Notes: generated by a model not told the origin, from the sequence alone. Counted from the stretch's first letter, positions 9,644-56,842 are shown. The stretch is 64,000 nt of DNA from Anaerolineales bacterium (GCA_034432895.1 DAOUBG010000007.1:6956-70955); one strand, 5' to 3'. Translations and numbers: made by a program.

Positions 9644-9658
9644 ATTTTTCGGGAGGAA

Positions 9659-11937: not shown

Positions 11938-11941
11938 TCGA

Positions 11942-12721: not shown

Positions 12722-12778
12722 TGGCGGTGGACGGTAAGGAGGACCGTGGGAGGATGATGGACCGTGGTAACTGTGGCA
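12722..12778 (-). repeat. C/T-rich word repeat, locus D
   Basis: The minus strand reads ccacagttaccacggtccatcatcctcccacggtcctccttaccgtccaccgccat, in the aroF-aroA spacer. Confidence 0.5.
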
Positions 12779-12827
12779 TAGTCACAAGGCTTTAGGGGTA
12801 TGGCCTGGGAGTAGATGGTGAGAGAAA

Positions 12828-14911: not shown

Positions 14912-14965
14912 AACAAGCATCGGCTTTGTTCTACGGGTGTTTGTTCAGGAGGAGCATCGTTCCGT

Positions 14966-32766: not shown

Positions 32767-33549
32767 CTAGCGGAAAAGGTCCATCTCTTTAGGGCGCAGC
32801 AAATCCCCCAATTTGCCCTCGCTGAGGGGATAGGGAAAGCCACGAATGTGGATGGCCGGGGTTCCCTCGGCGGCCTGCCCCATCAGCAAACTGGCCGCCG
32901 CGGCCAGCTCATCTGCCACGCCGACTACAGTGACGCGCAGCTCGTAGTCAAAGAGGTCTTTCCAGCCGCGCTCATCCACGATGGCCGGCAAACCGGAAAG
33001 CCCAATGCAGGCACCGACCGTGCCAATCCTCCAGGCGCGACCGTGCGAATCTACGATCAGAATGCCCAGGTGCTTGCCGCTGCGGAATTCCAAGGCTTTG
33101 CGCAGGCGAGCGGCGGAGGCATCCGGATTTTCCGGGAGCAGGAGAACCCATTCTTCCGACGCGAGCTCTGCTGGGGCATTCGGCGGTGGTGCGACGTTAG
33201 AGTGATCGATCCCGGCGTTTGCGCAAACGAAACCGAGACGGTGTTCAACGATGATCGTGCCGGGACGTACTCGCAGCACTTCACGGCTTTCGCCGAGGAT
33301 CAGCTCGATCAGCCGCGGGTCCTTTTCGCAGCGTGCGGCCAGTTCCAGTGCCTGTTCGGAGGGCGTAACCTGAGAAAGGTGTACCAATCGCCCCTCGGAT
33401 TTGCTGACGATCTTCGAGGCCAGCGCAAGAATATCCCCATTTCGCAGCCGAATACGAGCTCTTTCCAAGGCTTGCCAGAGGATCTCGGCCAGATCGTCAC
33501 CGGGTTGGATGAGCGGAATGCCTGGTAGGGTGGTGAGGGTGAGCTTCAT
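32767..33549 (-). CDS. cofE: coenzyme F420-0:L-glutamate ligase
   Basis: The protein reads [11 protein letters not shown]...[17 protein letters not shown]...[16 protein letters not shown]...VDSHGRAWR. Confidence 0.85.
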
Positions 33550-34223
33550 GCCGGTCGCGTGACTCCCGTAATGCGGATGCCGGCATGGGTGCTGCCGTAT
33601 TGCTTGTTGATGTAAATCAGGATGCTGGTCAGGCCTTCCACTACTACCGAATTCTGGATCGGTCCGGCATCCCAGCCGATCAGGCCGGCATCTTTTACCA
33701 GCTGCAGGGTGCGTTGACGGGCAGCTTTGCTCGTGCCAGTTACCAGCACGTCACACTCGACCTCTCCATTCCCAAGCAGGTGCTCATAAGAAATATTCTG
33801 AAAAGCCGCACAGATTTCCACACCTTCGCCGAGGATTTCCAATGCTTCCTGTGTCGCCGAGCCGGCCGGCGGCATCTGTACCTGCGTCACTTTTGGGGGA
33901 ACCAGGGGCACGGTGACATCGATCAGCAATTTGCCCTGCAGCGCTTCTTTGAGCGTTTCCAGCATTTGCCGGTGTGCAGCATAAGGAACGGTGAGCACGA
34001 TCACTTCGGCGCGCGTTGCGGCGCTGAAATTTTCCATGCCTTCCAGGTTTGCCGAATTGCCGAACAGTTGCTGCACTTCTGCAACCGCCTGTTGGGCTTT
34101 TTCGGCTGTGCGCGAACCGATGATCACATGATGACCGGCTTTTGCCCAGCGATAGGCCAGGCCTTTGCCTTCTTTGCCGGTGCCGCCAATGATGGCAATG
34201 GTGAGGGGAGATGGGTTATCCAT
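33546..34223 (-). CDS. npdG: NADPH-dependent F420 reductase
   Basis: The protein reads MDNPSPLTIAIIGGTGKEGKGLAYRWAKAGHHVIIGSRTAEKA. The stop overlaps the cofE start (ATGA). The start is taken at the internal ATG 34223. Confidence 0.8.
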   Translation of the reverse strand: MDNPSPLTIAIIGGTGKEGKGLAYRWAKAGHHVIIGSRTAEKAQQAVAEVQQLFGNSANLEGMENFSAATRAEVIVLTVPYAAHRQMLETLKEALQGKLLIDVTVPLVPPKVTQVQMPPAGSATQEALEILGEGVEICAAFQNISYEHLLGNGEVECDVLVTGTSKAARQRTLQLVKDAGLIGWDAGPIQNSVVVEGLTSILIYINKQYGSTHAGIRITGVTRPA

Positions 34224-34794
34224 GAACAGACTCCAAAGAGGGCTTTTCTGCAACGATCCAGGCGCTATAGCGCTCGGTATGGATCGAAATTTTTGCACCT
34301 ATGCGTTCCAGGTCCTGCCCGATGGCGCGCGGGTGGCGGAAATGACTGCGCATGAGCAGCAACTTTTCGACCAAGGCAACCCCCTTGACCAATGGGTGAC
34401 GGATATCCGGTTCTTCGATGATCAGCTTGCCGCCAGGACGCAGGACACGCCAGGCTTCCTTGAGGGCCTCTTGTTGATTGAGCAAATGATGATAAGAATC
34501 TACCATCAGGACGATCTCAAAATGTGCGTTGGGAAAAGGGAGATATTCGGCCAGGGCACGAACGGGTATTACCCCTTCGCTGTTTTTCGCCTGCTTGAGC
34601 ATACTGGCAGATATATCGGCGATGAGTCGCCATCCGACCAGGCCGTCTAACGCCTTAACGACGCGCCCGGTGCCGCCGCCAATATCAAGCAGATCGCCCT
34701 TCCGTGGCAACCCGGCCAATTCTTTTAGACGAGTAGGATCGTAAGAAAAACGGGCGTAAAGGGGAGCAATCCAGTCGAAGTGATCGAATCTCAT
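34216..34794 (-). CDS. class I SAM-dependent methyltransferase
   Basis: Motif I is LLDIGGGTGRVV and the post-I region is FPNAHFEIVLMVDSYHHL. Its 3' end overlaps npdG by 8 nt. Confidence 0.8.
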   Translation of the reverse strand: MRFDHFDWIAPLYARFSYDPTRLKELAGLPRKGDLLDIGGGTGRVVKALDGLVGWRLIADISASMLKQAKNSEGVIPVRALAEYLPFPNAHFEIVLMVDSYHHLLNQQEALKEAWRVLRPGGKLIIEEPDIRHPLVKGVALVEKLLLMRSHFRHPRAIGQDLERIGAKISIHTERYSAWIVAEKPSLESVHG

Positions 34795-42216: not shown

Positions 42217-43029
42217 ATGGCGCTACGTGGGAATTTACGAGATTTTACGATCACCCAATTGCTCAACCTGGTCAGCTTGGCACAAAAGACCGGCACGCTC
42301 TTGATAGATGGACCGGGAAATGAACAGGCCAAAGCCAGTTTTCGCGAAGGCAAACTGGCGTATGCGCATATTGATCAGGAAGATGATCGCCTAGTTACGA
42401 TCTTGCACAAGGCTGGGAAGATCAGTGCCAATCAATATCGTGCCATCCTAGAGCGCGCCCATCAGATGAGCGATAAGGAGCTAGGCCTTTTGTTGGTCAA
42501 CGCGGGCTATCTTGCCCAGGAGGAGATCTTGCTGCTGCTCCAGGCACACTATACAGATGTGGTGCGTCGTCTGTTCACCTGGGTGGAGGGTGTTTTTCGT
42601 TTTGAAAGCGAGCTTCCTCCACCTCCCGATCGTATTCACGTGCGGATTGATCTGGAGAATCTGATCATCGAAGGCGCGCGTCAACTGCGAGAATGGGAGC
42701 AGCTGCAAGAGGAGATCCCAAGCCTGGATATGGCGCTTAAGTTTACCGATCGCCCGCTCCGGAATGTGAATTTGAGCATCGAAGAGTGGCGCGTCGTTTC
42801 ATACATCAACCCGAAAAACACCATTCGGCAGATTGCGGCAGCGAATAAAATGAACGAATTAGAGATTCGCCGCATTGTCTATGGCTTGCTTCAGGCTGGT
42901 TTGGTGGAATTGGTGCGTCCGGAAGGGGCCAAAGCGCCGGTGGCAACGCCACGCATGTTCCCCACGGAAAACCGCGAAGAGCAAAAATCTTTGATCAACA
43001 AACTCATTGGGCGTATTCGCAGCCTGTAA
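42217..43029 (+). CDS. DUF4388 / PATAN-domain protein with a C-terminal wHTH-like segment
   Basis: The N-terminus reads LRGNLRDFTITQLLNLVSLAQKTGTLLIDG...FREGKLAYAHI. The C-terminus reads NTIRQIAAANKMNELEIRRIVYGLLQAGLVELV. Confidence 0.75.
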   Translation: MALRGNLRDFTITQLLNLVSLAQKTGTLLIDGPGNEQAKASFREGKLAYAHIDQEDDRLVTILHKAGKISANQYRAILERAHQMSDKELGLLLVNAGYLAQEEILLLLQAHYTDVVRRLFTWVEGVFRFESELPPPPDRIHVRIDLENLIIEGARQLREWEQLQEEIPSLDMALKFTDRPLRNVNLSIEEWRVVSYINPKNTIRQIAAANKMNELEIRRIVYGLLQAGLVELVRPEGAKAPVATPRMFPTENREEQKSLINKLIGRIRSL

Positions 43030-43050: not shown

Positions 43051-43581
43051 ATGCAAACCGTAAAAATGGTCGTCACAGGTCCTTTCAATGCAGGTAAGAC
43101 GGAGTTCATTCAATCGGTGAGCGAGATCGACGTTGTCTCTACGGAGCGAAAGATCTCCAGTGCGGCTGAACGAGCGGTGAAAGAAGCGACTACGGTGGCA
43201 ATGGATTTTGGCCGTATCACGGTAGATGACGATCTGGTGCTTTATCTCTTTGGCACTCCCGGGCAGAAACGCTTTGACTTCATGTGGGAAATTCTTTCCG
43301 AGGGAATGTTGGGTTTTATTGTGCTGGTGGATTCCACCCGTCCGGAGACGTTCCGTGAGGCGCGCACCATTTTGGAGACTTTCCGGGCTTATGCTCCCAC
43401 GCCGTATGTGGTAGCAGCTAATAAGCAGGATTTGCCGGACGCGTGGGACTTGGAAGATATGCGCCATGCCTTGCGCTTGGATCCGAAGGTGAAACTCCTC
43501 CCATGTGTGGCGAAGGATAAGGAGTCGGTCAAGAAGGTGCTTTTGGAGCTTCTGTATAGCATTCTCGAAGAGATTGAATAG
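43051..43581 (+). CDS. small Ras-like GTPase of the CvnD / MglA-related (ATP/GTP-binding protein) family
   Basis: It has G1 GPFNAGKT, G3 LFGTPGQKRF and G4 ANKQD. The TTVAMDFGRI block is typical of conservon GTPases. Confidence 0.8.
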   Translation: MQTVKMVVTGPFNAGKTEFIQSVSEIDVVSTERKISSAAERAVKEATTVAMDFGRITVDDDLVLYLFGTPGQKRFDFMWEILSEGMLGFIVLVDSTRPETFREARTILETFRAYAPTPYVVAANKQDLPDAWDLEDMRHALRLDPKVKLLPCVAKDKESVKKVLLELLYSILEEIE

Positions 43582-43583
43582 CC

Positions 43584-44381
43584 GTGTCCTCGATCACAAC
43601 CGATCAGGGTATCGTTCACTACGAAGTGTATGGGCGCGGCCGGCCGGTCATCTTACTTCATGGCTGGTTGGGCTCTTGGGGGTTGTGGCAAGATACCATG
43701 ACCGTTCTGGGGCGTTTTTATCGTACGTATGCCCTCGATTTTTGGGGTTTTGGCGAATCGGGAAAGAAGCGCACCACCTATGCGGTGCAGGATTTCGTCA
43801 GCCTGGTCGATCAGTTCATGGAGCAATTGGGTATTACGCGTGCGCCGCTGGTTGGACACAGCATGGGAGGCACGGTTAGCCTATCGGTAGCGGTCGAGTA
43901 TCCTGAACGGGTGAGCAAGGTGGTCGTAGTTGGTTCGCCGATTGTCGGTTCCTCTTTGGCATTGCCTCTCAAGCTGGCCGGTTATCGCTGGATTGCTTAT
44001 TTGCTGTTCAGCAATATGCACCTTTTCCGTTGGGGATTGCGTCAGGCTTCTCCGCTGATTTGCCGCGATCCGCGTTTCCCGGATATGATGGATCGGGATC
44101 TTTCGCGCACCACCTTGGAATCATTCTTGCTCAGTATTGCCTCGCTGCGGCGCACCGATTTGCGTCCATTTTTACCTTCCATCCGCGTTCCGGTCATGGG
44201 AATTTATGGCGATAAGGATAATATTGTGCATCCGCGCCAATGGCAGCCTCTCCAAAAGGGAGTTCCGCATGCCGTGATCCGCCGCTTTCCGAAATCCGGC
44301 CATTTCCCGATGCTCGAAGAACACCAACGTTTTGTTGAAATGCTGAAAGCTTTTTTGGATGAACCGGAGGTAATGTTATGA
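43584..44381 (+). CDS. alpha/beta-fold hydrolase (paralogue 1)
   Basis: Motifs: VILLHGWLGSWGLW, the nucleophile elbow GHSMGG, the acid GDKDNIV, and His in SGHFPMLE. It has a GTG start 2 nt after the GTPase stop. Confidence 0.85.
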   Translation: MSSITTDQGIVHYEVYGRGRPVILLHGWLGSWGLWQDTMTVLGRFYRTYALDFWGFGESGKKRTTYAVQDFVSLVDQFMEQLGITRAPLVGHSMGGTVSLSVAVEYPERVSKVVVVGSPIVGSSLALPLKLAGYRWIAYLLFSNMHLFRWGLRQASPLICRDPRFPDMMDRDLSRTTLESFLLSIASLRRTDLRPFLPSIRVPVMGIYGDKDNIVHPRQWQPLQKGVPHAVIRRFPKSGHFPMLEEHQRFVEMLKAFLDEPEVML

Positions 44382-44971
44382 GTGCCATCTCTGGGGCGAA
44401 TGCAGTGACGCGTAGTTTTTGGATGGCTCTGGAAGAGATCCTGGGGCAAGAACAGGCGCAAAGAGTTGGTGAGCGTTCTCTGCAACTCTCGGATGGTTCT
44501 TCCTTTTCGCTGACGCAGCTGGCTGCTTTGCAAGGAGCATTGGAAGGCATGTATGGCATTGCAGCAGGGCGAGGGGTTGCTGTGCGCAGCGGACGGGCTT
44601 GGGTAAAGTATGGATTTCGATTGTTCTATGAAGAACTGGGATGGAACCGGATTGAATTTCGCCTATTGCCCCGTACCCATCGACTCGAACGCGGGTTGAG
44701 GGATCTGGCCAACTGGATGAATGCTCATTTGCATGAGCACTTTGAGGTGCGGCGAATTCCTGAAGGCTGGATTTGGCAGATTGAGGGTGTTCCAGGCAGC
44801 GTGGAAGCAATGGAAAGCACCCCAGGATGTTATTGGATGATCGGTGTGCTCGAAGAAGTTCTCCACCGACTGGGAGATGGGAAAATCTTCCTGGTGCGCG
44901 AGATTTCTTGTCGGGTCAGTGGTGCTCTTTCTTGTTTATTTGAAATCCCGGCCCGGCCGCTGGGAGATTGA
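44378..44971 (+). CDS. V4R (4-vinyl reductase) domain protein
   Basis: The C-terminus shows the V4R Cys pattern: GCYWMIGVLEEVLHRLGDGKIFLVREISCRVSGALSCLFEI. ATG 44378 overlaps the upstream stop (ATGA). Confidence 0.7.
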   Translation: MSAISGANAVTRSFWMALEEILGQEQAQRVGERSLQLSDGSSFSLTQLAALQGALEGMYGIAAGRGVAVRSGRAWVKYGFRLFYEELGWNRIEFRLLPRTHRLERGLRDLANWMNAHLHEHFEVRRIPEGWIWQIEGVPGSVEAMESTPGCYWMIGVLEEVLHRLGDGKIFLVREISCRVSGALSCLFEIPARPLGD

Positions 44972-44972
44972 G

Positions 44973-46247
44973 ATGCTCAAAGTTGTCTTGCACGCGCCGA
45001 ATCCGATTTTCCCGTTCCATGAGCCGGCGCGCGATCTGCGCATTCAGAATCATCCGCTTTGGCTCTGGCAACGCACCGTGCTCGCTCCGTATGTAGATCG
45101 AGAGCTGGAGCTCCGCCAAGGTCAGCCTCTTCCGCAGCGGCGCGAGGAGATGATCGTCTACCGCGATAATCTCTTTTTTGACGCGCCCTATATTGAGAAA
45201 TTCATTCAAGAAGCTCGGCGTGAGAAACGCGCGGTGCGCGCGGCTTTCTCTGCCGATGATCCGGCTTTTCGGGAACATGCTTTACCGCTTTCAATCTCTT
45301 ACACTCCTGCAGGGAACTTATATCTAGCCGATCTCTGGTACTATCCCAATGGACCTGTGCCGGATGCAGAGCCGCTGGTGATCGACTTAGAAGCTCGAGA
45401 GATCGGCTATTACCACGTTCCGAGCTATATGGCCGGCCAAACCGGTGATCTGACTTTTCAGGTTCCGCTGCGTGCCCTGATAGCTATTGATTCCTGGGTG
45501 CATATTTTTATTGCCGATATTGTTTTTGGTCTTTTTGCGCGTGGCGCTCGCTTCGAGAAGCGACTGAAGGAGAACCTGGGCTTCAAATTAAAGATCCTGG
45601 CTCGTGCTTTATATGAGGGCAAGCAACTCCTAGAGTGTTCTGAACTGGTGAAAATTGGAAAGAATTGCGTGATCGATCCGAGGGCCATTATTCACGGCCC
45701 GACGACTATAGGCGATAATGTCACCATTGGTGCCGGTACGGTGATCGAGAATTGCATTATCGGCAGCAACGTGAACATTTCTCAGGATTGCCAATTGATG
45801 CTTTCGGTTGTGGGGGATGGCACTTTTCTGCCTTTTCGCGCCTCGTTGTTTATGACCACGGTTATGGAGCACAGCATGGTGGCGCAAAATACCTGTTTAC
45901 AGATGTGCGTGGTCGGTCGCAATACGTTTATCGGTGCAGGTTCGACTTGGACGGATTATAATTTGATCCCTATTCCGATCCGTGCCCGTGATGGGCATGG
46001 CGAGTTGAAGCCGGCAAATCGGCCGGTGATGGGCGGATGTGTGGGCCATAACTGCCGAATCGGTTCGGGGATGGTGGTCTATCCGGCGCGCATTATTGAC
46101 TCGGATGTCGTTTTGGCGGCCTCTCAAGAACGGCGTGTGATCACCCGAGATGTGCTCTTTGAGGAGAGTGATCACCATCGTTGGAAACAGGGCTATTTGC
46201 ATCAGGCCCTTTATCATCGCCCCAAACCGGATGCGGAATCCTGGTGA
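44973..46247 (+). CDS. left-handed beta-helix (hexapeptide-repeat) protein with a GlmU-like degenerate nucleotidyltransferase-type N-domain
   Basis: Hexapeptide runs are present: IGKNCVIDPRAIIHGPTTIGDNVTIGAGTVIENCIIGSNVNISQDC...VGRNTFIGAGS...VGHNCRIGSGMVV. The start is at ATG 44973, 1 nt after the V4R stop. Confidence 0.7.
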   Translation: MLKVVLHAPNPIFPFHEPARDLRIQNHPLWLWQRTVLAPYVDRELELRQGQPLPQRREEMIVYRDNLFFDAPYIEKFIQEARREKRAVRAAFSADDPAFREHALPLSISYTPAGNLYLADLWYYPNGPVPDAEPLVIDLEAREIGYYHVPSYMAGQTGDLTFQVPLRALIAIDSWVHIFIADIVFGLFARGARFEKRLKENLGFKLKILARALYEGKQLLECSELVKIGKNCVIDPRAIIHGPTTIGDNVTIGAGTVIENCIIGSNVNISQDCQLMLSVVGDGTFLPFRASLFMTTVMEHSMVAQNTCLQMCVVGRNTFIGAGSTWTDYNLIPIPIRARDGHGELKPANRPVMGGCVGHNCRIGSGMVVYPARIIDSDVVLAASQERRVITRDVLFEESDHHRWKQGYLHQALYHRPKPDAESW

Positions 46248-47350
46248 TGGATACATTTGCTTTTATCATTCACCCGATCGATCCTAAGCGGGATGTCAGC
46301 CGCAAGTTTCCGTTCCTCGGCAAAGTATTGAGCGAACGGCAGATCGACTTTTTCTCTACTTTCTTTCCTCCTGTCTACATTTCGGAGATGGAAGGAATTG
46401 TTTCTGCTGACACCGGTAAAGAGATCAAGGGGTGGTTTGTAGCTTGCCCTTTGACCCCTCGGCGCATGCTGGAATTGCCGGTTTCGCAGGTGTATCAGAA
46501 AATTATCCAGACCGGACGGTTGGCCGAACGTTTGGGCGCAAAAATCCTGGGATTGGGCGCCTTCACCTCGGTGGTCGGTGATGCCGGAATCACGATTGCT
46601 CGCGCATTGGAGATACCGGTGACCACAGGCGATGCATATACGATTGCCATAGCCGTGCAGGCAACGATGAAGGCCGCCGAGATCATGGATTTGCCCCTCT
46701 CAGATGTGACTGTCGCTGTGGTGGGGGCGACCGGCGCGATTGGACGCGTCTGTGCCCATCTTTTGGCCTCGCAGGCCGGGCGCCTACTTTTGATTGCTCG
46801 CAATCCTGAAAAATTGGAAATGCTTGCAATGCAATTGAAGCCTCAGTCGTATGGAGAGGTTGTCTGGAGTACTGATCTATCCGATTTGCGGCAGGCGGCG
46901 GTCATTCTTACCGTTACCAGCGCAATTCATAGTATCATTGAGCCACAGCATTTGATGCCTGGAAGTGTAGTTTGTGATGTGGCACGCCCTCGTGATGTTT
47001 CTGCAATGGTAGCTGCCAGCAGAGATGATATATTGGTAATTGAGGGCGGCATGGTGGATGTTCCCGGTGCCGTGAACTTTCATTTTGATTTTGGATTTCC
47101 GCCCGGCAAAGCCTATGCTTGTATGGCCGAGACAATGGCATTGGCCCTCGAGGGACGTTTTGAGGATTATACTTTAGGAAAAGAGATCTCCCTGGAGCGC
47201 GTTCAGGAGATCACGCGAATCGCTGAGAAACACGGTTTTCGTTTGAGCGGCTTTCGCGCCTTTGAAAAAAACGTGACCGAAGAGCAAATTGAAACGGTCA
47301 AACAGAAGGCGCGATGGAAGCGTGCCGCAGCGAAGCATTCGTCGATCTGA
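46247..47350 (+). CDS. acyl-ACP reductase (AAR)-like NAD(P)-dependent oxidoreductase
   Basis: The protein is collinear with my recollection of cyanobacterial AAR: FAFIIHP, LGLGAFTSVVGD, TTGDAYT, VAVVGATGAIGRVCAHLL, and YACMAETMALALEG with the putative catalytic Cys retained, then ITRIAEKHGFR. The start overlaps the upstream stop (TGATG). Confidence 0.7.
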   Translation: MDTFAFIIHPIDPKRDVSRKFPFLGKVLSERQIDFFSTFFPPVYISEMEGIVSADTGKEIKGWFVACPLTPRRMLELPVSQVYQKIIQTGRLAERLGAKILGLGAFTSVVGDAGITIARALEIPVTTGDAYTIAIAVQATMKAAEIMDLPLSDVTVAVVGATGAIGRVCAHLLASQAGRLLLIARNPEKLEMLAMQLKPQSYGEVVWSTDLSDLRQAAVILTVTSAIHSIIEPQHLMPGSVVCDVARPRDVSAMVAASRDDILVIEGGMVDVPGAVNFHFDFGFPPGKAYACMAETMALALEGRFEDYTLGKEISLERVQEITRIAEKHGFRLSGFRAFEKNVTEEQIETVKQKARWKRAAAKHSSI

Positions 47351-47371: not shown

Positions 47372-48274
47372 ATGGGAAAAGCTCGTTTGCTCATTGTGGA
47401 AGATGATCCCGACATTGCCAACATGCTCAAAATCTATTTCACCAGCTTGGATTATGATGTGGAGATCGCCCCTCGAGGTAGGGATGCTCTTGAAAAGACG
47501 CGCCAGGGAATGCCTCATCTCATCATCTTGGATATCATGCTTCCGGATATTGATGGTTACGAGGTATGTCGCACGCTGCGCATGAATACGCGCACTAGTC
47601 ATATTCCGGTGATCTTCCTGACCCAAAAGGATGAACGCAGCGACAAATTACAGGGTCTAGAACTGGGAGCGGATGACTACATTACCAAACCCTTTGATAT
47701 TGAGGAGTTAAAACTGCGTGTCCAGGGTGCCATCCGACGGGCAGAGCGCGAAAGCTTGACCGATCCGCGTTCCGGTTTACCTGCAGGGCGGTTGATCGAG
47801 GATCAACTACGGCGCATCATCCGAGAAAAAGGTTGGGCTTTGCTCGATATCCGCATTAATCACTTTGAAGCCTTTCGCGATGTCTATGGGTTTGTGGCCG
47901 GTGACGATGTGCTGCGCTTTACGGCTATGCTCTTAAGCGAGGTCGTGGATGAACTGGGCACGCCGGATGATTTTATTGGCCATCCGGGAGGAGATAACTT
48001 TATTATTATTACATCTGAGATAGCAGCCCCCAGCATTAAACAGCGGTTGAAAACACGCTTTGCTGAGGAGGTGCTTTCACATTATAACTTTATCGATCGT
48101 CAACAAGGCTTTATGGTGGCGCCTAACAAGGATGGTGTGTTGGAAAAAGTACCTTTTATGAACCTGGCGATCGGTATTTTGCCTTCTACGGAGCATACGT
48201 TTACCGACATTCGCGAAATCACCGAAATGGCGGCTGAAATGCGGCGTCAGGATGTGACATCCAGCCCGGCGTGA
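47372..48274 (+). CDS. response regulator with a degenerate GGDEF output domain
   Basis: It has a REC domain (LLIVEDDPDI...ILDIMLPDIDG...GADDYITKPF) and a GGDEF-like domain whose signature is GGDNF. The upstream FKxxNDxxGH block reads FEAFRDVYGF. Confidence 0.85.
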   Translation: MGKARLLIVEDDPDIANMLKIYFTSLDYDVEIAPRGRDALEKTRQGMPHLIILDIMLPDIDGYEVCRTLRMNTRTSHIPVIFLTQKDERSDKLQGLELGADDYITKPFDIEELKLRVQGAIRRAERESLTDPRSGLPAGRLIEDQLRRIIREKGWALLDIRINHFEAFRDVYGFVAGDDVLRFTAMLLSEVVDELGTPDDFIGHPGGDNFIIITSEIAAPSIKQRLKTRFAEEVLSHYNFIDRQQGFMVAPNKDGVLEKVPFMNLAIGILPSTEHTFTDIREITEMAAEMRRQDVTSSPA

Positions 48275-48293: not shown

Positions 48294-51200
48294 ATGTTTG
48301 CTAATTTGGGCATTGGACTTACTCTACTCATATCAGGGCTTGGGATCATGCTCTTAATCATCGGCGCTGTGAATTTGTTGCAGCGGCAACAGAGACGCAC
48401 GCCGAGTTCTCCATCCTTTTCTTTGTCTGAAATCTCCGTTGGAGAGGGGCAGGAGGGCATTCTAATTCTGGTGGGAGGTAGGGTTGAATATATCAATGCC
48501 CAAGCGCGTGCCCTTTTTGGCTTGGCGGAAGATGAGTTCCCTGATCTGGAGCGCCTCACGCGCCGTGCCCGTCCGGCCGAAGATTTTCTCGACCTGTGTG
48601 CTTTGCCATCGGAGAAATACTTCACGGTCAATGGTCAACGAGTAGAGGCCCATTCTTATGCTTTGCCTCTTTTTACTGCTGCCACTTTTGTTCGTTTACG
48701 CCCTTTAGAATCCGCCGATACGATTGAAACGCAGAGTGTTCTCAGGGCGTTCATGGAATTTATTCAGGAGATCGGCACGGAAACGAACCTTCCGGATGGT
48801 TTGCAAAAGATTGCTTATCACTTAGCCCACTTTTTTGCCTATGAGTTCCTAGAAATTAAACTTTGGCATCCTGAGCGCGAAGAATGGACTCTTTACACGT
48901 TTAGCGAACGAGATCAATATTTGCCTCGCTCTATTGCGTTCGATGCTTCGCGCTTTGGCGCACAATATCTGAGGCTTTCTTCTGAAAATCCCATACTGGT
49001 TTCTTTTGTCGATGAGTCCTCGGATGCGCCTATTCGTTCTTATCTTGGTCTGTTTTTGGAAATAGGAGGGGAGAAGATTGGGGTACTAGAAATGGGGGCG
49101 TTAGCAGTAGATCGATTTAGTGAAAAAGACGCGCATTTCCTTCAAATGCTGAGAATTCCTCTCAGCATCGCGTTGCACAATATTCTCAAGCAGGAAACAT
49201 TACAACGCCGTTTGGAAGAACTAAGCGGACCGGTTCATTTGGCCCAGGCAATCGGAGCAATCCAAGAACCACAGGAACTGTTTTCACGCTTGATCGAGCA
49301 TCTGCGTCCGTTCTTTCCTGCCGAAGTGCTCGGATTCCTGTTGTATGATGCGGAACGAAATCTGCTTTACGCTCAAAAACCCTTCTATGGCCTACCGGAG
49401 CATATTATCGATATCTATCACGCCATTGTTCCCATTGGCAGCCAGGGTGAAAAGTTGCTCGGAAGACATGATATTGCTTTTACGGCCGATCCGGGAAGTG
49501 ATCCGCTTTGGGTGAGCTTGGGAATTCACACGGTGGCATTAGCAGCCAGTTTGCGTAATGCCGTCCTGGCACCGCTGGTTTCAGGGGAAGAATTCATCGG
49601 CTATTTGCAGATTGCCAATTATCGAGAGGAGACTCCGTTTTCGGATGAGGAGAAACGTGTTCTCGAAAGCTTGATGCCGCAGATCACCAGCATTGTGAAG
49701 GGTGCTCTGTTGGTGCAGCAAGCGCGTCAGCGCTTCCAACGTACTGAGGCACTTCGAAGGATCGCCCAGCTGGTTGTTTCAGAGGTGCCTTTAGATGAGA
49801 TCCTCAAGTTTTCTTTGCAAGAGATGGCACGCCTTTTTCAGGCCGATTTTGGTGCCATCTATTTGCTGGATGAGGAGCGCGGTCGCCTAATCTTACATCG
49901 GCTTTCGTTGTGGAATGTTTCTCCCGAACAAGCAACGCATCTCGAAGAATTGTATCTGGGACAAGATTACTATCACACCATTTCCGGCGCACAATGTCCC
50001 TTTATCTCGAGTTATTTGAGCCGTGATGAGCGCGTACTGCCGCTCTATCGTGGGATTGTTGAACGTTTTGGGGTAGAGTCCTCTATGGTCGTCCCTTTGA
50101 TTGCGCGTGGTCGGAGCCTGGGGGAATTGATGTTGGGGAAAAAGGCCACCAACGCCTTTCGCCATGAGGACCTACAGGTATTGTTAACGGCTGTCAGCCA
50201 ATTGGCTAGTGCTATTGAGAGTCGTCGTCTGTATGGCCTGACAGACGAAGCATTGCAACGCCGCTTGGACCTTTTTTCTGCAATGACCCGTATTACCCGT
50301 GAGTTGCATGTTGTTTTGGATGTTAAGCGGGTGATGCGGGTGATTCACGACGAAAGCTTACGGTTGTTGAAGGCCGATTGTGGTTCGATTTACCTTTTGG
50401 TCGAAAATGGCTCTGAGGCTTCGCCACGCTTTGAGCGGCTTTTCGGGTGTGAAATGGAATCCTTGCTTCCTTATGAAATCGAAGCGATCCAGAAACGAGA
50501 AACCCTATTCCTGGATTTTTCTCAAAAGGAAACTTCTCTTTCGCCGCACGAGGAAGTGCGTTCAGCGTTGGTCTCTCCGATCCTGTATGGGGATCGGGCG
50601 ATCGGTTTGCTCGATCTTCACTTTCACCGTCGTCGTTCTGTAGATGAAGACACCATCCAGATTCTTGAAATGTTAGCCGCTCAAGCCGGGATTGCCTTGG
50701 TCAATGCCCGCGCCTACGCAAAAGAGCTGGAACAGGCCGCCCTTTTCCGTATCCGTGCTCAGGCGCTCCAGGAACTGGAATCCTTGAACCGGCGACTGAG
50801 TGCAACTTCTTCGCTGGAAGAAGCTTTGCATGAGGTGGCCGTTTCGATCACTCGTGTCTCGCCGTTTGACGTGGCGCTGATTAGCGTTTATCAGCCCCAA
50901 GAAGGAATGTTGCGCCGTGTGGCTGGAGTGGGGATTGCACCGGAAACGATGCGGGAACTATTGCTCAGGCATCAGCCCTGGGAAGCCTTACAGACCTTAT
51001 TACGACCGGAATTTCGGATTGAGCAGGCTTATTTCATTCCTGCCGAGCAAATGCCGGTCATTCCTCCTGAAGTGCACACGGTTACCCTGGCTACGGCCGC
51101 TTCTGAATCCCAGGCAAATGTCTGGAACCCTGAAGATTTCCTGCTCTTTCCGCTTTTGGATGCCGATGGGAGCCCGGTAGGTCTGATCAGTGTGGATATG

Positions 51201-54200
51201 CCGCGTGACAAGCGTCGCCCGGATCGGGTGACCATCGAGGTAATTCAAGCCTTCGCTGCCCAGGCGACGCGCTGGATTTTGCACTTCCGGCGGTTAGAAG
51301 AGGCGCAAACGGAAGTTGAACGGACGCAGATCGCCTTGCAGCGTCAGCAGATGCTGTTCTCGGTGGCGCAAGGACAATTACCGGTTCTGTTGCATAACGA
51401 TCTGGAGCATGTTCTGTCATTGCACGCGCTGGAAAGCCGGCAGCGTCGTATTCGCGCGATCTTGACGATTACCGAGGTGGTCAGCCGTCAGCCGGATGTT
51501 AATATGGCATTGACCCAATTGGGACGGGAACTGCTCACCCGTCTGGAGATGAGCACAGTGCTGGTGGCCGAAGCGAGCGCTGAGGGACCTGTGCTGCGCC
51601 AAGTTTTCGGACAGATTCCTGCAGATGCTTATGTAGAAACGCTCTTCGGCCAACGTAATCCTTTGCGCGTAGCCCTCCAAAGCGGTGAATTGATGTTGGT
51701 CTCCACTCTTGAGGAAAGCGAGGAATGGCGCGATAACCCTCTATTAAACGCTTTGAACACCAAGGGTTTCATCTGCTTACCGCTAGTGGTGGGCGAAAAT
51801 CCGAGCGCGGCCGTGCTGGCGATTAGTAACCAGCCTTTGCCGGCTTTTACCGAGGATGATCGAGCGCTCTATGCACAGGTTAGCCGACAGTTAGCCATTA
51901 TTCTCCAGAATATTTCTCTGTTCACCCAAACACGCCGCCGCTTGCAGGAAGTTAACCTGTTGTTGGAATTCAGCCGACGTATTGCTGGGGCCGGGCCGAT
52001 AGAAATCTTCGAACTTCTGTTGAGCAATGTGCGTCAGGTGATCACAGCAGCGCATGCCGGCGTGGCGTTGCTTTGGAATGAACGCGAACGCGTTTTGGAA
52101 CCTGTGGTGGCACAGGGCTATATGGATAGCAAAGCCATGCTGGCCATGCGCTATCGCAGCGGGGAAGCCTTACCCGGCCAGGTCTTTGAGAGCCGTCGAG
52201 TGCGTCGGGTGGTGGAAGTTAACTTTATGCGCGATTACCCACTGAACCCGGAGCAACTATCGCTTTATCGTCAAGCTGTTGCCCAGCGCTTACCGGTTTC
52301 GTCGTTAGTGGTGCCTATCCAAAGTGCTAATACTACTCTGGGTGTGCTTGTGTTGGATAATTTCAATCAGCCGCAAGCCTTTTCCCAGGCAGATGAAGAT
52401 CTGGTTCTCTCTCTGACACAACAGGTAACGTTGTTCCTGGAGAATATGCGCCTGTTGCAGGCCGCTCAGGAGCGTGCTTTGCAGATGGAGGCGCTTTCCT
52501 CGGCAGCCACCGAACTCACTGCACGCCTCCACCGCGAGGATATTATTGCCACCCTTCTGGATCGACTCAAGGGGATTCTTCCTTACGATGCGGCAATCCT
52601 GTGGTTGCGAGAAGGGGATCGAATGCGTGTCTGGGCGGCGCGCGGTTTTTCCGATCTGGAAGAGTATCAGGGACTTTCCCTTTCGATTCACGAGAGCGCT
52701 TTGCTCCAAGAGATGATACGGACCGGCCAACCGCTCTCAGTCGAGGATGTACGCAACGATCCACGCTTTCCACCAATGGAGGCGGCGCGTCTTTCTTGGT
52801 TGGGGCTGCCGTTGATGGCAAAAGGTGAATTGATCGGCGTGATCGCTTTGGAAAAATGGGAGGCCCATTTTTATACCCATGAGAAAATTCAGCTAGGTTT
52901 GACGTTTGCAAACCAAGCCGCGATCGCTCTGGAGAATGCCCGCCTATTTGACGAAAGCCAACAACGCGCGGCAGAACTTGATGAACGTTCTCGCCGTCTG
53001 AGCGTGCTCAATCGCCTTTCGGGCAGGTTGGCCGCAACGTTGGACGCGGATGAGATTTTACGCCTGACCGCCGGAGAGCTCTTCGGCGCGCTAAATGCTG
53101 ATTTTCTTGCGGGCATTGTCTTTGTAGAAGAACACCCGTATTTGCATTCCGTGCTTCCTTCGGGGCGGTTGGCATCCACGGAAATTTCCCCTTCTCCTCT
53201 TTTCCAACGGTTTATCGAGGGGAGTGGTGTCTTTGTGACCGAAAGGGCGGCTCAAGAGCCCGACCTGCAACCCCTTTTACCGGCATGGAGACAGGAACTG
53301 CCGTATTTGCTTGCCTTGCCTTTGATGATCGGCGAGGCCTTGCGAGCTGTCTACCTGATTCAGCGATTGAACACTCCTTTCACCGCTGCGGAGATCGAAC
53401 TGGCGCGCACCATGGCCAACCAGACCTCCATTGCTCTGGAAAACGCGCGTCTCTATCAATCTACTGTACGCACCGCCGAACGCTTTGCTATTCTGAACCA
53501 AGTGAGCGCGGAGATCGGCGCAACACTGGAGATCGAAGAACTTGCCCAAACGGTATATCAGGCTGCTACCCGTCTTTTCCCGCTGGAGGCGTTTGTCTTT
53601 GCCCTGGCCAATGAGGCCGAGCGTGTGGTGGAGGTCGCCTATCTTGTAGATAAAGGAGAAGTGCTGACTCCAATGCGGCTGAAATGGGGTCAAGGGATTA
53701 GTGGACAAGTTATCGCCGGTGGCGAGCCCATTCTGACGCATACGTTGGAGGAGAGCAGAGCCTTGCGCGCAGCACCGCGTGGCGAATTGCCCGCATCCAT
53801 TTTAGCCGTGCCTATTCGTCAGGGAGAAAAGGTTGTCGGTGCGCTTTCGATCCAGAGCTATCGTCCCTATGCTTACACCGACGAGGATTTGCAAATTTTC
53901 AGCACGTTATCCAACCAGGTGAGCGTGGCATTGCAGAATGCGCGCCTGTTTGCCGAGGCGCAGGCGCTGGCCGAAAACCTCGAACAACGGGTGCGCGAAC
54001 GTACGGCGGAACTGGAGCGCGAGAAGCGCAATACCGAAACCCTCTTGCGCATTTTCAGCGAAGTCTCTGCCACGCTGGATCTCGACCGTGCCTTACATCG
54101 TACCCTGAGCCTGCTCAACGATGCAGTGGGGGCAGAGCAAGGCACGATCATGCTTCTAAATCCGCAGGATTTTCTTCTCTACTATCGTGCTGGATATGGA

Positions 54201-55646
54201 TATGCATCTGAGCGCGCTGAGGATGCAGTCCAGAAAAAAGGCTTCCGTATTGGAGAGGGATTGGCCGGTTGGGTTGTTGCTCATCGCGAGGCTGTTTTGA
54301 TCGAAGATTTGACCAAAGATGAGCGCTGGGTTCCGACAGAGACTTCCCGAGAACATCGTAGTGCTGTCGGCGTTCCTTTGATGGTGGGCGAAAATATCTT
54401 GGGTGTATTAATGGTGTTCCATCGCCAGGTGGGCTTTTTCAACCAGGATTCCCTCAATTTGATCAAGGCCATCGCCGGCCAGGTTTCGATCGCCATCAAT
54501 AATGCCAATCTATATCAATTGATCCGTGAGCAATCCGAACGCCTGGGTTATCTCTATCGCCAGCAAGCGGAAGAGGCTAGCCGTTCTCAGGCCATCCTGG
54601 AGGCTGTGGCCGATGGTGTGTTGGTAACCGATGCCGAAAACCGTATTTCCTTCCTCAACCGCTCAGCCGAGCGCATTTTGCACCTTGAAGCGACGCGCAT
54701 TCTCGGACAATCGTTGGCGGATTTTGCTGGATTGTTCGGCAAGGCGGCTCGCGAGTGGATCAACACGATTCATCGCTGGTCCGAGGATCCCTCCTCCTAT
54801 CAGCCCGGTGAATCCTATGTGGAGCGCATTGAACTGGATGATGGACGAGTGGTACTGGTACACCTGGCGCCGGTAATCCTCCAAAACGAATTTCTAGGTA
54901 CCGTTTCTATTTTCCGTGATATTACTCACGAAGTCGAAGTGGATCGTTTGAAATCCGAATTTGTTGCCACGGTGAGCCACGAATTGCGCACTCCGATGAC
55001 TTCGATCCGTGGCTATGTGGACCTCTTGCTGATGGGCGCGGCCGGCGCTCTGAATGAGATGCAGGCGAATTTCTTGAACGTGATCAAAAGCAATACCGAG
55101 CGCTTGAACGCGCTGGTTGCCGATCTGCTCGATATTTCCCGTATCGAAGCCGGAAGGGTTATGCTTACGCCGCAGCCGCTCAACTTGCGCCACATCGCCG
55201 AAGAATCGTTGGCAGAAATCCAACGCCGCTCACAACAAGAGAATAAACCGATGACTTTCACGTTAGAAGCGGCGACACCTTTGCCTTTGGCCTTTGGGGA
55301 TATGGAACGAGTACGTCAGATCATCGGCAATTTGCTCGAAAACGCGTATTCCTATACCCCGGCCGGGGGCCGAATCCAGGTGCGCCTGCATGCTGAGGGC
55401 AACGAAGTTCAGGTAGATGTACAAGATAGTGGAATCGGCATTTCACCACAGGACCAGGCGCGCGTTTTTGAGCGCTTCTATCGTGGGGAGCATCCTCTGG
55501 TGATCGAAACTCCGGGCACCGGTTTGGGGCTTTCCATTGTCAAGCAACTGGTTGAAATGCACGGTGGACGCATCTGGGTCACCTCGAGCGGCGTGTACGG
55601 GGAAGGAAGTACATTCTCTTTCACGCTTCCAATCTATACAAGTTAG
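48294..55646 (+). CDS. membrane-anchored hybrid-size sensor histidine kinase: TM, PAS-like, 11 GAF, PAS, HisKA, HATPase_c
   Basis: The 2450-aa protein has one N-terminal TM helix. Eleven GAF-terminal helices of the form Q(A/V)(A/S)IAL-NARL(F/Y) can be counted in the translation. The H-box is SEFVATVSHELRTPMTSIRGY, with N/G boxes NLLENAYSYTP, DSGIGI and GTGLGLSIVK. Confidence 0.9.
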   Translation: MFANLGIGLTLLISGLGIMLLIIGAVNLLQRQQRRTPSSPSFSLSEISVGEGQEGILILVGGRVEYINAQARALFGLAEDEFPDLERLTRRARPAEDFLDLCALPSEKYFTVNGQRVEAHSYALPLFTAATFVRLRPLESADTIETQSVLRAFMEFIQEIGTETNLPDGLQKIAYHLAHFFAYEFLEIKLWHPEREEWTLYTFSERDQYLPRSIAFDASRFGAQYLRLSSENPILVSFVDESSDAPIRSYLGLFLEIGGEKIGVLEMGALAVDRFSEKDAHFLQMLRIPLSIALHNILKQETLQRRLEELSGPVHLAQAIGAIQEPQELFSRLIEHLRPFFPAEVLGFLLYDAERNLLYAQKPFYGLPEHIIDIYHAIVPIGSQGEKLLGRHDIAFTADPGSDPLWVSLGIHTVALAASLRNAVLAPLVSGEEFIGYLQIANYREETPFSDEEKRVLESLMPQITSIVKGALLVQQARQRFQRTEALRRIAQLVVSEVPLDEILKFSLQEMARLFQADFGAIYLLDEERGRLILHRLSLWNVSPEQATHLEELYLGQDYYHTISGAQCPFISSYLSRDERVLPLYRGIVERFGVESSMVVPLIARGRSLGELMLGKKATNAFRHEDLQVLLTAVSQLASAIESRRLYGLTDEALQRRLDLFSAMTRITRELHVVLDVKRVMRVIHDESLRLLKADCGSIYLLVENGSEASPRFERLFGCEMESLLPYEIEAIQKRETLFLDFSQKETSLSPHEEVRSALVSPILYGDRAIGLLDLHFHRRRSVDEDTIQILEMLAAQAGIALVNARAYAKELEQAALFRIRAQALQELESLNRRLSATSSLEEALHEVAVSITRVSPFDVALISVYQPQEGMLRRVAGVGIAPETMRELLLRHQPWEALQTLLRPEFRIEQAYFIPAEQMPVIPPEVHTVTLATAASESQANVWNPEDFLLFPLLDADGSPVGLISVDMPRDKRRPDRVTIEVIQAFAAQATRWILHFRRLEEAQTEVERTQIALQRQQMLFSVAQGQLPVLLHNDLEHVLSLHALESRQRRIRAILTITEVVSRQPDVNMALTQLGRELLTRLEMSTVLVAEASAEGPVLRQVFGQIPADAYVETLFGQRNPLRVALQSGELMLVSTLEESEEWRDNPLLNALNTKGFICLPLVVGENPSAAVLAISNQPLPAFTEDDRALYAQVSRQLAIILQNISLFTQTRRRLQEVNLLLEFSRRIAGAGPIEIFELLLSNVRQVITAAHAGVALLWNERERVLEPVVAQGYMDSKAMLAMRYRSGEALPGQVFESRRVRRVVEVNFMRDYPLNPEQLSLYRQAVAQRLPVSSLVVPIQSANTTLGVLVLDNFNQPQAFSQADEDLVLSLTQQVTLFLENMRLLQAAQERALQMEALSSAATELTARLHREDIIATLLDRLKGILPYDAAILWLREGDRMRVWAARGFSDLEEYQGLSLSIHESALLQEMIRTGQPLSVEDVRNDPRFPPMEAARLSWLGLPLMAKGELIGVIALEKWEAHFYTHEKIQLGLTFANQAAIALENARLFDESQQRAAELDERSRRLSVLNRLSGRLAATLDADEILRLTAGELFGALNADFLAGIVFVEEHPYLHSVLPSGRLASTEISPSPLFQRFIEGSGVFVTERAAQEPDLQPLLPAWRQELPYLLALPLMIGEALRAVYLIQRLNTPFTAAEIELARTMANQTSIALENARLYQSTVRTAERFAILNQVSAEIGATLEIEELAQTVYQAATRLFPLEAFVFALANEAERVVEVAYLVDKGEVLTPMRLKWGQGISGQVIAGGEPILTHTLEESRALRAAPRGELPASILAVPIRQGEKVVGALSIQSYRPYAYTDEDLQIFSTLSNQVSVALQNARLFAEAQALAENLEQRVRERTAELEREKRNTETLLRIFSEVSATLDLDRALHRTLSLLNDAVGAEQGTIMLLNPQDFLLYYRAGYGYASERAEDAVQKKGFRIGEGLAGWVVAHREAVLIEDLTKDERWVPTETSREHRSAVGVPLMVGENILGVLMVFHRQVGFFNQDSLNLIKAIAGQVSIAINNANLYQLIREQSERLGYLYRQQAEEASRSQAILEAVADGVLVTDAENRISFLNRSAERILHLEATRILGQSLADFAGLFGKAAREWINTIHRWSEDPSSYQPGESYVERIELDDGRVVLVHLAPVILQNEFLGTVSIFRDITHEVEVDRLKSEFVATVSHELRTPMTSIRGYVDLLLMGAAGALNEMQANFLNVIKSNTERLNALVADLLDISRIEAGRVMLTPQPLNLRHIAEESLAEIQRRSQQENKPMTFTLEAATPLPLAFGDMERVRQIIGNLLENAYSYTPAGGRIQVRLHAEGNEVQVDVQDSGIGISPQDQARVFERFYRGEHPLVIETPGTGLGLSIVKQLVEMHGGRIWVTSSGVYGEGSTFSFTLPIYTS

Positions 55647-56053: not shown

Positions 56054-56842
56054 ATGAGCGCCATTTTGCTGGATGGTTCAATTGTGCACTATGAGGTGTT
56101 GGGGCGTGGCCGCCCCATCATCTTCCTGCATGGTTGGCTTGGCTCATGGCGCTATTGGATTTCCTCGATGCAGGTTACTTCCACCCTCTTTCGCTCCTAT
56201 GCTCTCGATCTGTGGGGCTTCGGCGATACTGCCCGTCTGAAAGAGGGATATTCGATCGATCGGCAGGCGTTGCTGGTACGCCAGTTTATGGAAAATATGG
56301 GGATCGGAAAAGTCGCGCTGATCGGTCATTCTTTGGGCGGGCTGGTAGCTTTTCGCTTCGCGGCACGCTGGCCTGAATCGGTAGACCGCATGATGGTTAT
56401 CAGCACGCCTCTTGATGCCACTGCCATTTCCCCGCGTTGGTTGAACGCTTCTTTGCCCGATCTACTCAACTGGTTGACCAGCCGTTCTCCAGAAGCGCAA
56501 AATGCTCTTTCCGATGCTCTGCGTGCCGATCCTCAAACGCTCACCGTTTCTTTCCAAACGACGAGCTTTTCTCGCCTTTTCAACGAAATGCTTCCGACTC
56601 GCATTCCTTGCCTGCTCGTCTACGGGGAAAACGATCCGGCCGTGGTTGCCCCGTTGCTTGAGCAAGTCTTCCCCCTTCCTTCGCATATTCACCAGATCGT
56701 CCTTGAAGATACTGCCCATTTCCCCATGCTGGATCAACTGGCGCTCTTTCAGCGCTTACTGGTTGATTTCCTGGCCTTGGCCTCCGGCGATAGCCCGCGC
56801 GAACTGCAATTGAAAGAGGAGTGGCGTCGCCGCGTAAGATAA
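56054..56842 (+). CDS. alpha/beta-fold hydrolase (paralogue 2)
   Basis: Its N-terminus, GSIVHYEVLGRGRPIIFLHGWLGSWRYW...YALDLWGFGDT, parallels the 43584 gene. The triad is GHSLGG, GENDPAV and TAHFPML. Confidence 0.85.
   Translation: MSAILLDGSIVHYEVLGRGRPIIFLHGWLGSWRYWISSMQVTSTLFRSYALDLWGFGDTARLKEGYSIDRQALLVRQFMENMGIGKVALIGHSLGGLVAFRFAARWPESVDRMMVISTPLDATAISPRWLNASLPDLLNWLTSRSPEAQNALSDALRADPQTLTVSFQTTSFSRLFNEMLPTRIPCLLVYGENDPAVVAPLLEQVFPLPSHIHQIVLEDTAHFPMLDQLALFQRLLVDFLALASGDSPRELQLKEEWRRRVR

Follow-up and report, generated by a model that had tools for sequence, protein, structure and literature searches.

A predicted thioester reductase and its left-handed beta-helix neighbor in a conserved gene cluster of Anaerolineae

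Why does a bacterium of the Anaerolineales carry a relative of AAR, the cyanobacterial reductase of acyl-ACP (ACP, acyl carrier protein), and why is its gene joined to that of a left-handed beta-helix (LbH) protein? To our knowledge, AAR-type reductases are known almost solely from the alkane synthesis of cyanobacteria and from enzymes of pigment synthesis that resemble PigE. The locus lies in a 64,000-nucleotide stretch of one genome assembly (GCA_034432895.1, DAOUBG010000007.1:6956-70955), the whole of which we call the window. A preliminary description had claimed two open reading frames (ORFs) there, at 44973..46247 and 46247..47350, with a TGATG overlap, and we found both as placed on the plus strand. 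The first encodes a two-domain LbH protein of 424 amino acids, and the second encodes an AAR-like protein of 367 amino acids, a predicted COG5322-type NAD(P)H-dependent thioester reductase. The TGATG overlap, read at 46245..46249 on the plus strand, joins the LbH stop codon TGA (46245-46247) to the ATG of the AAR-like gene (46247-46249), with one base common to both. Longer ORFs starting from upstream GTG or TTG codons are made unlikely for either gene by the lengths of the homologs, which are 424 to 425 amino acids for the LbH protein and 361 to 367 amino acids for the AAR-like protein. Because the homologs have matching lengths, we accepted the starts that yield 424 and 367 amino acids. On balance, we think it probable that the two products, a candidate NADPH-dependent thioester-to-aldehyde reductase and its LbH partner, make up the enzymatic core of an Anaerolineae signaling cluster.

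Family placement and active site of the reductase

In the preliminary description, the 367-amino-acid protein was taken to be AAR-like. This stands as far as the superfamily is concerned, since the protein is collinear with AAR at full length (NCBIfam acyl-ACP reductase model TIGR04058, 114.7 bits, E 5.5e-33, residues 28-332 against profile positions 26-335 of 339; PDB entry 6JZQ, E 2e-25). It does not stand at the level of the AAR equivalog, for which the curated cutoff of TIGR04058 is 449.7 bits. The best-scoring characterized relative was the domain at the N terminus of PigE (PigE-N), an enzyme of the MAP pathway of prodigiosin synthesis. The NCBIfam PigE model NF053554 matched residues 4-358 with 219.2 bits (E 1e-64, profile positions 2-360 of 837), and among PDB sequences the PigE entry 4PPM (E 1.1e-38) came before 6JZQ. 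Identity was 31 % to PigE-N and 28 % to AAR. The window protein is not itself a PigE, which is fused to a class-III aminotransferase, is recognized by a full-length score of at least 850 bits, and is encoded in the pig pigment cluster; the window reductase is free-standing, has 367 residues, and has a nucleotidyltransferase-like/LbH partner. Shikimate dehydrogenase and glutamyl-tRNA reductase (GluTR), either of which could have proved the better family, gave partial matches only, at 37 to 46 bits. Pfam Shikimate_DH scored 46 bits over residues 144-259, and the GluTR model hemA scored 36.9 bits against a cutoff of 209.55; both models cover residues 130-259 alone, the NAD-binding part. On this point, the family comparison that could have overturned the preliminary description went in its favor. 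As for kinship with the cyanobacterial enzymes, a neighbor-joining tree of 128 domains, computed without support values, put AAR as the outgroup, PigE-N as sister to a large star-like radiation, and the window clade inside that radiation, apart from AAR.

We then compared the window protein with AAR residue by residue, using the functional roles reported for AAR residues, including the acyl-enzyme thioester at Cys294 (PMC7089970). Both motifs named in the preliminary description, VAVVGATGAIG and YACMAETMALALEG, are present; the first falls on the dinucleotide loop of AAR and the second on its Cys294. The window block YACMAETMALALEG lies opposite FACFAEAMLLEFEG of AAR and GCMAETIVLALEN of PigE, which places Cys292 on AAR Cys294 and on PigE Cys296, so that the aligned cysteine is the one at the catalytic position. 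The dinucleotide loop, GATGDIG in AAR, is G160-A-T-G-A-I-G166 in the window reductase, and the AAR triad that holds the 2'-phosphate of NADPH (R189/R193/R314) becomes R185/K189/K312, in which the Arg-to-Lys changes are conservative. Across the reductase family, the GATGxIG loop is conserved and the catalytic Cys is found in 119 of 126 representatives, or in 121 of 128 aligned sequences when AAR and PigE are counted. Conservation of the Cys and the NADPH site in about 95 % of the family argues for turnover. Judged by its residues, the product of the gene at 46247-47350 is therefore predicted to be equipped for Cys- and NADPH-dependent thioester reduction. This chemistry would be shared with its relatives. 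In AAR, GluTR, and the PigE N-domain, the acyl group is transferred to a Cys, hydride transfer follows, and the aldehyde then goes to a partner (PMC8341465; for the Cys-thioester mechanism, also PMC7089970); for PigE-N, thioester-to-aldehyde reduction with hand-over to a partner domain has been proposed (PMC8341465).

The residues that tie AAR to the alkane pathway are a different matter. The window reductase has the same three-domain layout as AAR (TIGR04058; S. elongatus Orf1594, PDB 6JZQ/6JZU) over the full length, together with the catalytic Cys, the GATGxIG loop, and the basic 2'-phosphate pocket. Unlike AAR, it does not retain the tyrosines by which the acyl tunnel is closed, and the residues by which AAR docks onto aldehyde-deformylating oxygenase (ADO), R73/R79/K80/Y247, are P78/Q84/K85/R247 here, so that R73, R79, and Y247 have no counterpart. 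It also differs in belonging to the Chloroflexota, in lying within a signaling cluster, and in having an LbH partner in place of ADO. A tblastn search that covered the window and the flanking DNA of 160 related loci, with an ADO sequence not taken from a database record as the query, found no match, in agreement with the earlier statement that the window holds no ADO-like gene. Because the score lies under the equivalog cutoff, the ADO-contact residues are lost, and ADO was not found in the window or the locus flanks, we conclude from the sequence that the 367-amino-acid protein is a member of the AAR superfamily but not an AAR ortholog. By the same token, it is predicted to be a distinct paralog that does not feed an alkane pathway. 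Nor does this placement warrant taking a long-chain acyl-ACP for the substrate, since the best match, at 219 bits, is the N-terminal thioester reductase of PigE.

The LbH partner

The hexapeptide-repeat identity of the 424-amino-acid protein was borne out by Pfam Hexapep (PF00132, 54.8 bits), with the repeats at residues ~220-330. Narrower models fell short of their cutoffs: LbH_EIF2B scored 48.7 bits against 54, and glmU (TIGR01173) scored 42 bits against 367 and matched the LbH part alone. For residues 1-220, searches of Pfam with the single sequence and of PDB with an N-domain profile and a full-length family profile gave no N-domain match. We therefore turned to structure prediction. A first AlphaFold2 model built from 24 close homologs reached a pLDDT of only 49 and was discarded. 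The model used here was built on an alignment of 146 sequences, including 116 homologs retrieved with a 49 %-identical ortholog as the query, and reached a pLDDT of 84 and a pTM of 0.85. It consists of a degenerate nucleotidyltransferase-like domain (residues ~1-170), linker helices (~171-218), a left-handed beta-helix (~219-395), and a conserved tail.

A Foldseek search of this model against PDB, over ~450 aligned columns, returned ST0452 (5z09) as the best match (E 2.5e-13, TM-score 0.48-0.55). Further matches were GMPPA/GMPPB, VTC1-KONJAC (KJC2), GlmU, and eIF2B gamma/epsilon, with E-values from 2.5e-13 to 1e-6; the GlmU entries stood at 6e-8 and weaker, and 7d72, 8yre, and 5b04 were entries matched among the non-catalytic relatives (GMPPA, KONJAC, and eIF2B gamma/epsilon). 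Because Foldseek returns two-domain proteins composed of a nucleotidyltransferase and an LbH domain, a GlmU-type fold of the N-domain is supported. The nucleotidyltransferase signature G-x-G-T-[RS] is absent: the N-terminus is VVLHAPNPIFPFHEPARDL, and the family consensus is IIEDxRHIPPFNEPAS. The earlier suggestion of a degenerate GlmU-type nucleotidyltransferase N-domain is thus sustained in both of its parts, the fold by the Foldseek match and the degeneracy by loss of the signature. As modeled, the 424-amino-acid protein is GlmU/ST0452-shaped and has lost the nucleotidyltransferase signature.

The comparison with known proteins can be drawn more closely. Like GlmU and ST0452, the window protein has a Rossmann-like N-domain, a helical linker, and a left-handed beta-helix with hexapeptide repeats in the same order, and like GMPPA, KONJAC, and eIF2B gamma/epsilon it lacks the N-terminal catalytic signature. 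It departs from the whole group in that its N-domain has no detectable sequence similarity to theirs, all family cutoffs are missed, its tail has the form SDHH ... W-COOH, and its partner is a predicted thioester reductase and not a sugar-nucleotide enzyme. Four acidic residues of the N-domain are invariant (D65, D70, D96, and D120). Conservation is highest in the C-terminal half of the beta-helix, where 20 polar residues are near-invariant and an invariant His359 stands in a G-H-N-C-R-I-G context; these residues may form either an acyltransferase site or a docking surface. An invariant S-D-H-H motif follows ~25 residues before the C-terminal Trp. The last residues, ESW before the stop codon, are encoded at 46236-46244, and the terminal Trp is present in 123 of 145 orthologs whether or not the stop and start codons overlap. 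LbH orthologs are often named "multidrug transporter" in public records (P0139, P0149, P0391, and similar). This name looks like a propagated misannotation because the domain evidence gives it no backing.

A conserved cluster around the pair

To place the pair in its wider setting, we ranked related loci by similarity and took the best 80 from Anaerolineales and the best 80 from other orders (Aggregatilineales, Thermoflexales, Ardenticatenia, and others), the latter with a five-sequence alignment as the query. The LbH gene immediately precedes the AAR-like gene in 145 of these 160 loci, that is, in all 80 from Anaerolineales and in 65 of the 80 from other orders, where the LbH proteins are 45 to 55 % identical. 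In 104 of the 145 pairs, the gap from the LbH stop to the reductase start is 30 nucleotides or less. Such synteny rules out chance adjacency of the two genes. The reductase gene is followed about as often overall by a regulator and a kinase gene as it is preceded by the LbH gene, and some loci (e.g., L081 and L087) retain reductase, response regulator, and kinase without the LbH gene. A stand-alone lipid pathway is contradicted by the synteny, in which the pair belongs to a signaling cluster of seven to eight genes conserved across Anaerolineae. Searches of the literature on Chloroflexi AAR homologs, on COG5322, and on DUF4388, V4R, and GTPase proteins turned up no account of the LbH-reductase pair or the cluster, and as far as we could find, the gene pair stands in a previously undescribed conserved context.

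The genes upstream of the pair are closely packed. The conserved cluster begins with a gene at 42217..43029 (+) for a PATAN/DUF4388-domain protein of 270 amino acids (PF14332, 98.5 bits), which is syntenic in 60 of 80 Anaerolineales loci and 39 of 80 loci from other orders. It is followed at 43051..43581 (+) by a small Ras-superfamily GTPase of 176 amino acids (64/80 and 40/80), which is MglA/CvnD-like (ATP_bind_1, 77.8 bits; Ras, 40 bits), carries the motifs GPFNAGKT, GTPGQ, and NKQD, and is ~80 to 99 % identical across Anaerolineae. Lipidation of this GTPase was considered and dropped, as a C-terminal Cys is absent. The next gene starts at 43584, just after the end of the GTPase gene (43581); it runs to 44381 (+) and encodes an alpha/beta-fold hydrolase of 265 amino acids with the nucleophile motif GHSMGG (Abhydrolase_1, 113.8 bits; 68/80 and 41/80). 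Its 3' end overlaps by 4 nucleotides the start of a gene at 44378..44971 (+) for a V4R-domain protein of 197 amino acids (PF02830, 29.6 bits, just under the cutoff of 31). The V4R gene stops at 44971, and the LbH gene starts at 44973. No other member of the cluster is as poorly conserved as V4R (63/80 and 13/80). Amino acid identities within Anaerolineales are 70 to 97 %, with ~90 % for the GTPase and only ~30 % for V4R (the reductase ortholog of Anaerolinea thermophila is ~74 % identical), and many of the absences in that order are loci that end at contig ends. Promoter and terminator scans gave counts no higher than those of shuffled controls and are therefore uninformative on the operon boundaries.

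Downstream of the reductase gene, an AGGAGG ribosome-binding site precedes the ATG of a response regulator gene at 47372..48274 (+). The regulator joins a REC domain (Response_reg, 104 bits) to a degenerate GGDEF domain (GGDNF; 43 bits, partial match), and it follows the AAR-like gene in all 80 Anaerolineales loci and in 61 of the 80 others. The GGDEF motif is degenerate in each of 136 orthologs (GGDNF, GRDNF, GSDNF, and similar), and the REC Asp is retained in 134 of the 136. Therefore, the regulator is a conserved pseudo-cyclase, and its pseudo-cyclase domain may possibly serve as a nucleotide receptor. The next gene, at 48294..55646 (+), encodes a histidine kinase of 2450 amino acids in which Pfam recognizes at least nine GAF domains as well as PAS, HisKA, and HATPase_c (77/80 and 56/80). 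The kinase begins with a hydrophobic segment, a possible membrane anchor, and its N-terminal part is only 25 to 40 % identical across Anaerolineae; the loci that we retrieved extend only into this gene. In the window, a second alpha/beta-fold hydrolase gene (56054-56842, 262 amino acids) lies ~400 nucleotides downstream of the kinase gene.

The closest parallels to this arrangement are PATAN-MglA modules and the actinobacterial conservon (CvnA-D), in which a small MglA-family GTPase likewise stands beside PATAN/DUF4388 with a histidine kinase. The association of PATAN with MglA-family GTPases has been noted previously (PMC4316618). Unlike those systems, the window cluster adds an alpha/beta-hydrolase, V4R, the nucleotidyltransferase-like/LbH protein, and the AAR-like reductase, and it contains neither a Roadblock/MglB nor a DUF742 gene. 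The papers that we consulted do not mention hydrolase, V4R, LbH, or reductase genes beside PATAN-MglA modules. Some loci have further genes within the cluster, which vary and are not conserved; they include glycosyltransferases, kinases, TIR-FGE, and DprA. In one case, LPG_synthase_TM-like and glycosyltransferase family 2 (GT2) genes are inserted (L123:2389-4421), and in another the insert is a PMT_2/ArnT-like gene (L087:9227-11035). The glycosyltransferase insertions hint, weakly, that the cluster is connected with the cell envelope.

Relatives of the reductase and possible roles of the pair

We next asked how the reductase domain is deployed elsewhere. A family search over representatives of clusters at 50 % identity matched 3419 clusters at E<1e-3, of which 915 remained at E<1e-30; the family spans Chloroflexota, Bacillota, Omnitrophota, and further phyla. 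The only uses of the domain outside cyanobacteria that our literature searches turned up are of the PigE and koreenceine types, which agrees with the earlier remark that AAR homologs outside cyanobacteria are essentially uncharacterized. Public names of close homologs disagree accordingly, and include "shikimate dehydrogenase," "SDR family oxidoreductase," "polysaccharide biosynthesis protein," "predicted amino acid dehydrogenase," and "fatty aldehyde-generating acyl-ACP reductase."

Many relatives are fused to other domains. Among the 150 best representatives, 11 have a mutually homologous N-terminal extension. The six scanned extensions with a match were SRPBCC (Polyketide_cyc), accompanied in two by PilZ and in one by HTH_17; the seventh, that of P0278, had no N-terminal Pfam match. 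The SRPBCC-fused reductases come chiefly from Omnitrophota. One further relative has two PilZ domains, and another has a C-terminal GAF domain. Examples of these architectures are P0269 (HTH_17-PilZ-SRPBCC-reductase), P0255 (PilZ-SRPBCC-reductase), P0388 (PilZ-PilZ-reductase), and P0348 (reductase-GAF). The N-terminal extension of the fused relatives was also considered as a homolog of a window protein, and blastp gave no match. The fusions to PilZ, GAF, HTH, and SRPBCC domains suggest that members of the reductase family may be controlled by cyclic di-GMP or by another ligand.

A second kind of partner is an uncharacterized N-terminal domain of ~300 amino acids, present in 30 of the 150 best representatives. 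Fused to the reductase, it gives proteins of ~700 amino acids in Roseiflexaceae, Chloroflexales, Amarolinea, and metagenome-assembled genomes of Anaerolineae (L163-L168 and P0260), and in L167 a DUF4388 gene and a GTPase gene of the same type lie directly upstream of the fused relative. In Bacillota, Armatimonadota, and Atribacterota, where the reductases are 49 to 53 % identical to the window protein, a free-standing homolog of the ~300-amino-acid domain is encoded directly upstream of the reductase in 42 of 80 loci (L169-L248), as in L208:6074-6976 followed by L208:7001-8044. Pfam, NCBIfam, and PDB sequence searches with this domain gave no match, and its possible relationship to the LbH protein was rejected, with an hhalign probability of 0.3 %. 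The reductase family therefore has at least four alternative partner modules, and this variety would fit a superfamily whose members tend to hand a reactive aldehyde on to a partner of their own.

Given these comparisons, we favor the following reading of the window pair. An acyl-thioester (acyl-ACP, acyl-CoA, or another carrier thioester) would acylate Cys292, as homology indicates, and NADPH at the GATGAIG loop would reduce the Cys292 thioester to a free aldehyde, as the conserved residues suggest. The LbH protein would form a complex with the reductase, in which it would be either a pseudo-enzyme with a regulatory or scaffolding role, as are GMPPA, KONJAC, and eIF2B gamma/epsilon, or an acyltransferase that binds acyl-thioesters. 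Together, the two would produce or convert a small, hydrophobic molecule derived from an aldehyde, and the signaling machinery would either control its production or receive a report of it. The cluster carrying them runs in the order PATAN, MglA-like GTPase, alpha/beta-hydrolase, (V4R), LbH, reductase, REC plus degenerate GGDEF, and multi-GAF kinase. The signaling link of the reductase is plausible in view of the synteny and of the fusions to PilZ, GAF, HTH, and SRPBCC in its relatives. An aldehyde might, as the preliminary description proposed, be a ligand for the GAF or V4R proteins.

Several observations weigh against this reading. We infer the LbH-reductase complex from gene coupling alone, and in 15 of the 80 loci from other orders no LbH gene stands beside the reductase. 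The TM-scores of the LbH protein in Foldseek are only ~0.5. Genes for ACP, fatty-acid synthesis, an acyl-CoA ligase, or aldehyde-consuming enzymes were not found in the cluster, and PigE, the closest characterized enzyme, reduces a branched keto-acyl thioester and not a plain fatty acyl-ACP. The Bacillota pair of ~300-amino-acid protein and reductase usually lies in a housekeeping stretch (birA-coaX-dus-HTH-...-greA-lysS), a context that hints at a core metabolic and not a signaling function.

The substrate of PigE-N, a 3-acetyloctanoyl thioester, bears on the alternative that fares best. Here the reductase would have as its substrate a thioester or ester that is not of the fatty kind (a short, branched, keto-, or amino-acyl thioester, or an aminoacyl-tRNA as in GluTR), and the hydrolase and an LbH acyltransferase would build a specialized metabolite, e.g., an N-acylated amino aldehyde or an amine-type signal. 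The distant kinship of the family to GluTR points the same way, as do a PigE-like aminotransferase-reductase-adenylation fusion among the relatives (P0357) and the co-conservation of the alpha/beta-hydrolase with a possible acyltransferase. We still consider it unlikely, as genes for a carrier protein, adenylation, polyketide or nonribosomal peptide synthesis, or an aminotransferase were not found in the cluster, and enzymes of secondary metabolism are not usually as similar across a whole order as the ~70 to 75 % identity seen here.

A true acyl-ACP reductase, whose long-chain fatty aldehydes or alcohols would go into bulk lipids (waxes, fatty alcohols, or ether lipids), with the LbH protein as an acyl-ACP-using acyltransferase, is harder to reconcile with the data and in our judgment improbable. 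The protein misses the AAR equivalog cutoff four-fold and is nearer to PigE-N, it does not share the residues that in AAR lie at the end of the acyl tunnel or contact ADO, the cluster is without lipid-synthesis genes, and the conserved neighbors are all signaling proteins. These points have to be set against the full-length collinearity with AAR, the conserved Cys and NADPH site, and the presence of LpxA and LpxD, LbH acyltransferases that use acyl-ACP, among the sequence matches of the LbH protein. Lipid-binding SRPBCC domains fused to some relatives and the membrane glycosyltransferase genes (GT2, LPG_synthase_TM, and PMT_2) inserted in a few loci also speak for a lipid product.

Least probable of all is that reductase and LbH protein are mainly sensors or regulatory pseudo-enzymes with no product of their own. 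They would take NADPH, an acyl-thioester, or a compound like a nucleotide sugar as their ligand and so inform the GTPase/PATAN switch and the two-component pair of the metabolic state. In our judgment, the lost signature of the nucleotidyltransferase-like domain (as in its fold matches GMPPA and eIF2B gamma/epsilon), the degenerate GGDEF domain next door, and the relatives fused to HTH DNA-binding, PilZ, and GAF domains are outweighed by the catalytic Cys and whole NADPH site kept in ~95 % of the family and by the many invariant polar residues in the C-terminal half of the LbH protein, as expected of an active or specific binding site.

The favored reading, a thioester reductase and LbH partner at the core of a signaling cluster, can be carried further into a complete scheme, which we regard as rather unlikely and which ranks between the non-fatty substrate and the bulk-lipid enzyme. 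In it, the reductase and the pseudo-GlmU, perhaps with the alpha/beta-hydrolase, would make a hydrophobic aldehyde-derived messenger in an undescribed Anaerolineae signaling system. Its level would be set and read out by the MglA-like GTPase/PATAN switch, the V4R/GAF sensor, and the REC plus pseudo-GGDEF regulator, and the COG5322 domain would recur as a module that generates or senses signals, as its fusions to PilZ, GAF, HTH, and SRPBCC suggest.

In anaerobic digesters, activated sludge, and sediments, Anaerolineae are among the dominant groups. The AAR-type reductases prove to be part of a far larger, unstudied family, of which one paralog has become fixed in a highly conserved Anaerolineae cluster. 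If the enzyme makes an aldehyde signal, lipid or thioester metabolism would be tied to prokaryotic small-GTPase signaling, and the family could be a source of new aldehyde-forming biocatalysts. Should it serve merely ordinary lipid metabolism, the annotation of the family would still need correcting, with names that span "shikimate dehydrogenase" to "multidrug transporter."

Two observations concern the window outside the cluster. On the minus strand at 32767-34298, a gene for an F420-0:gamma-glutamyl ligase (CofE-like) adjoins an F420-dependent NADP oxidoreductase-family gene, and these adjacent genes suggest that the genome uses cofactor F420. The G+C content is 0.62-0.64 in window positions 8001-16000 and 0.48-0.58 in the window's second half.

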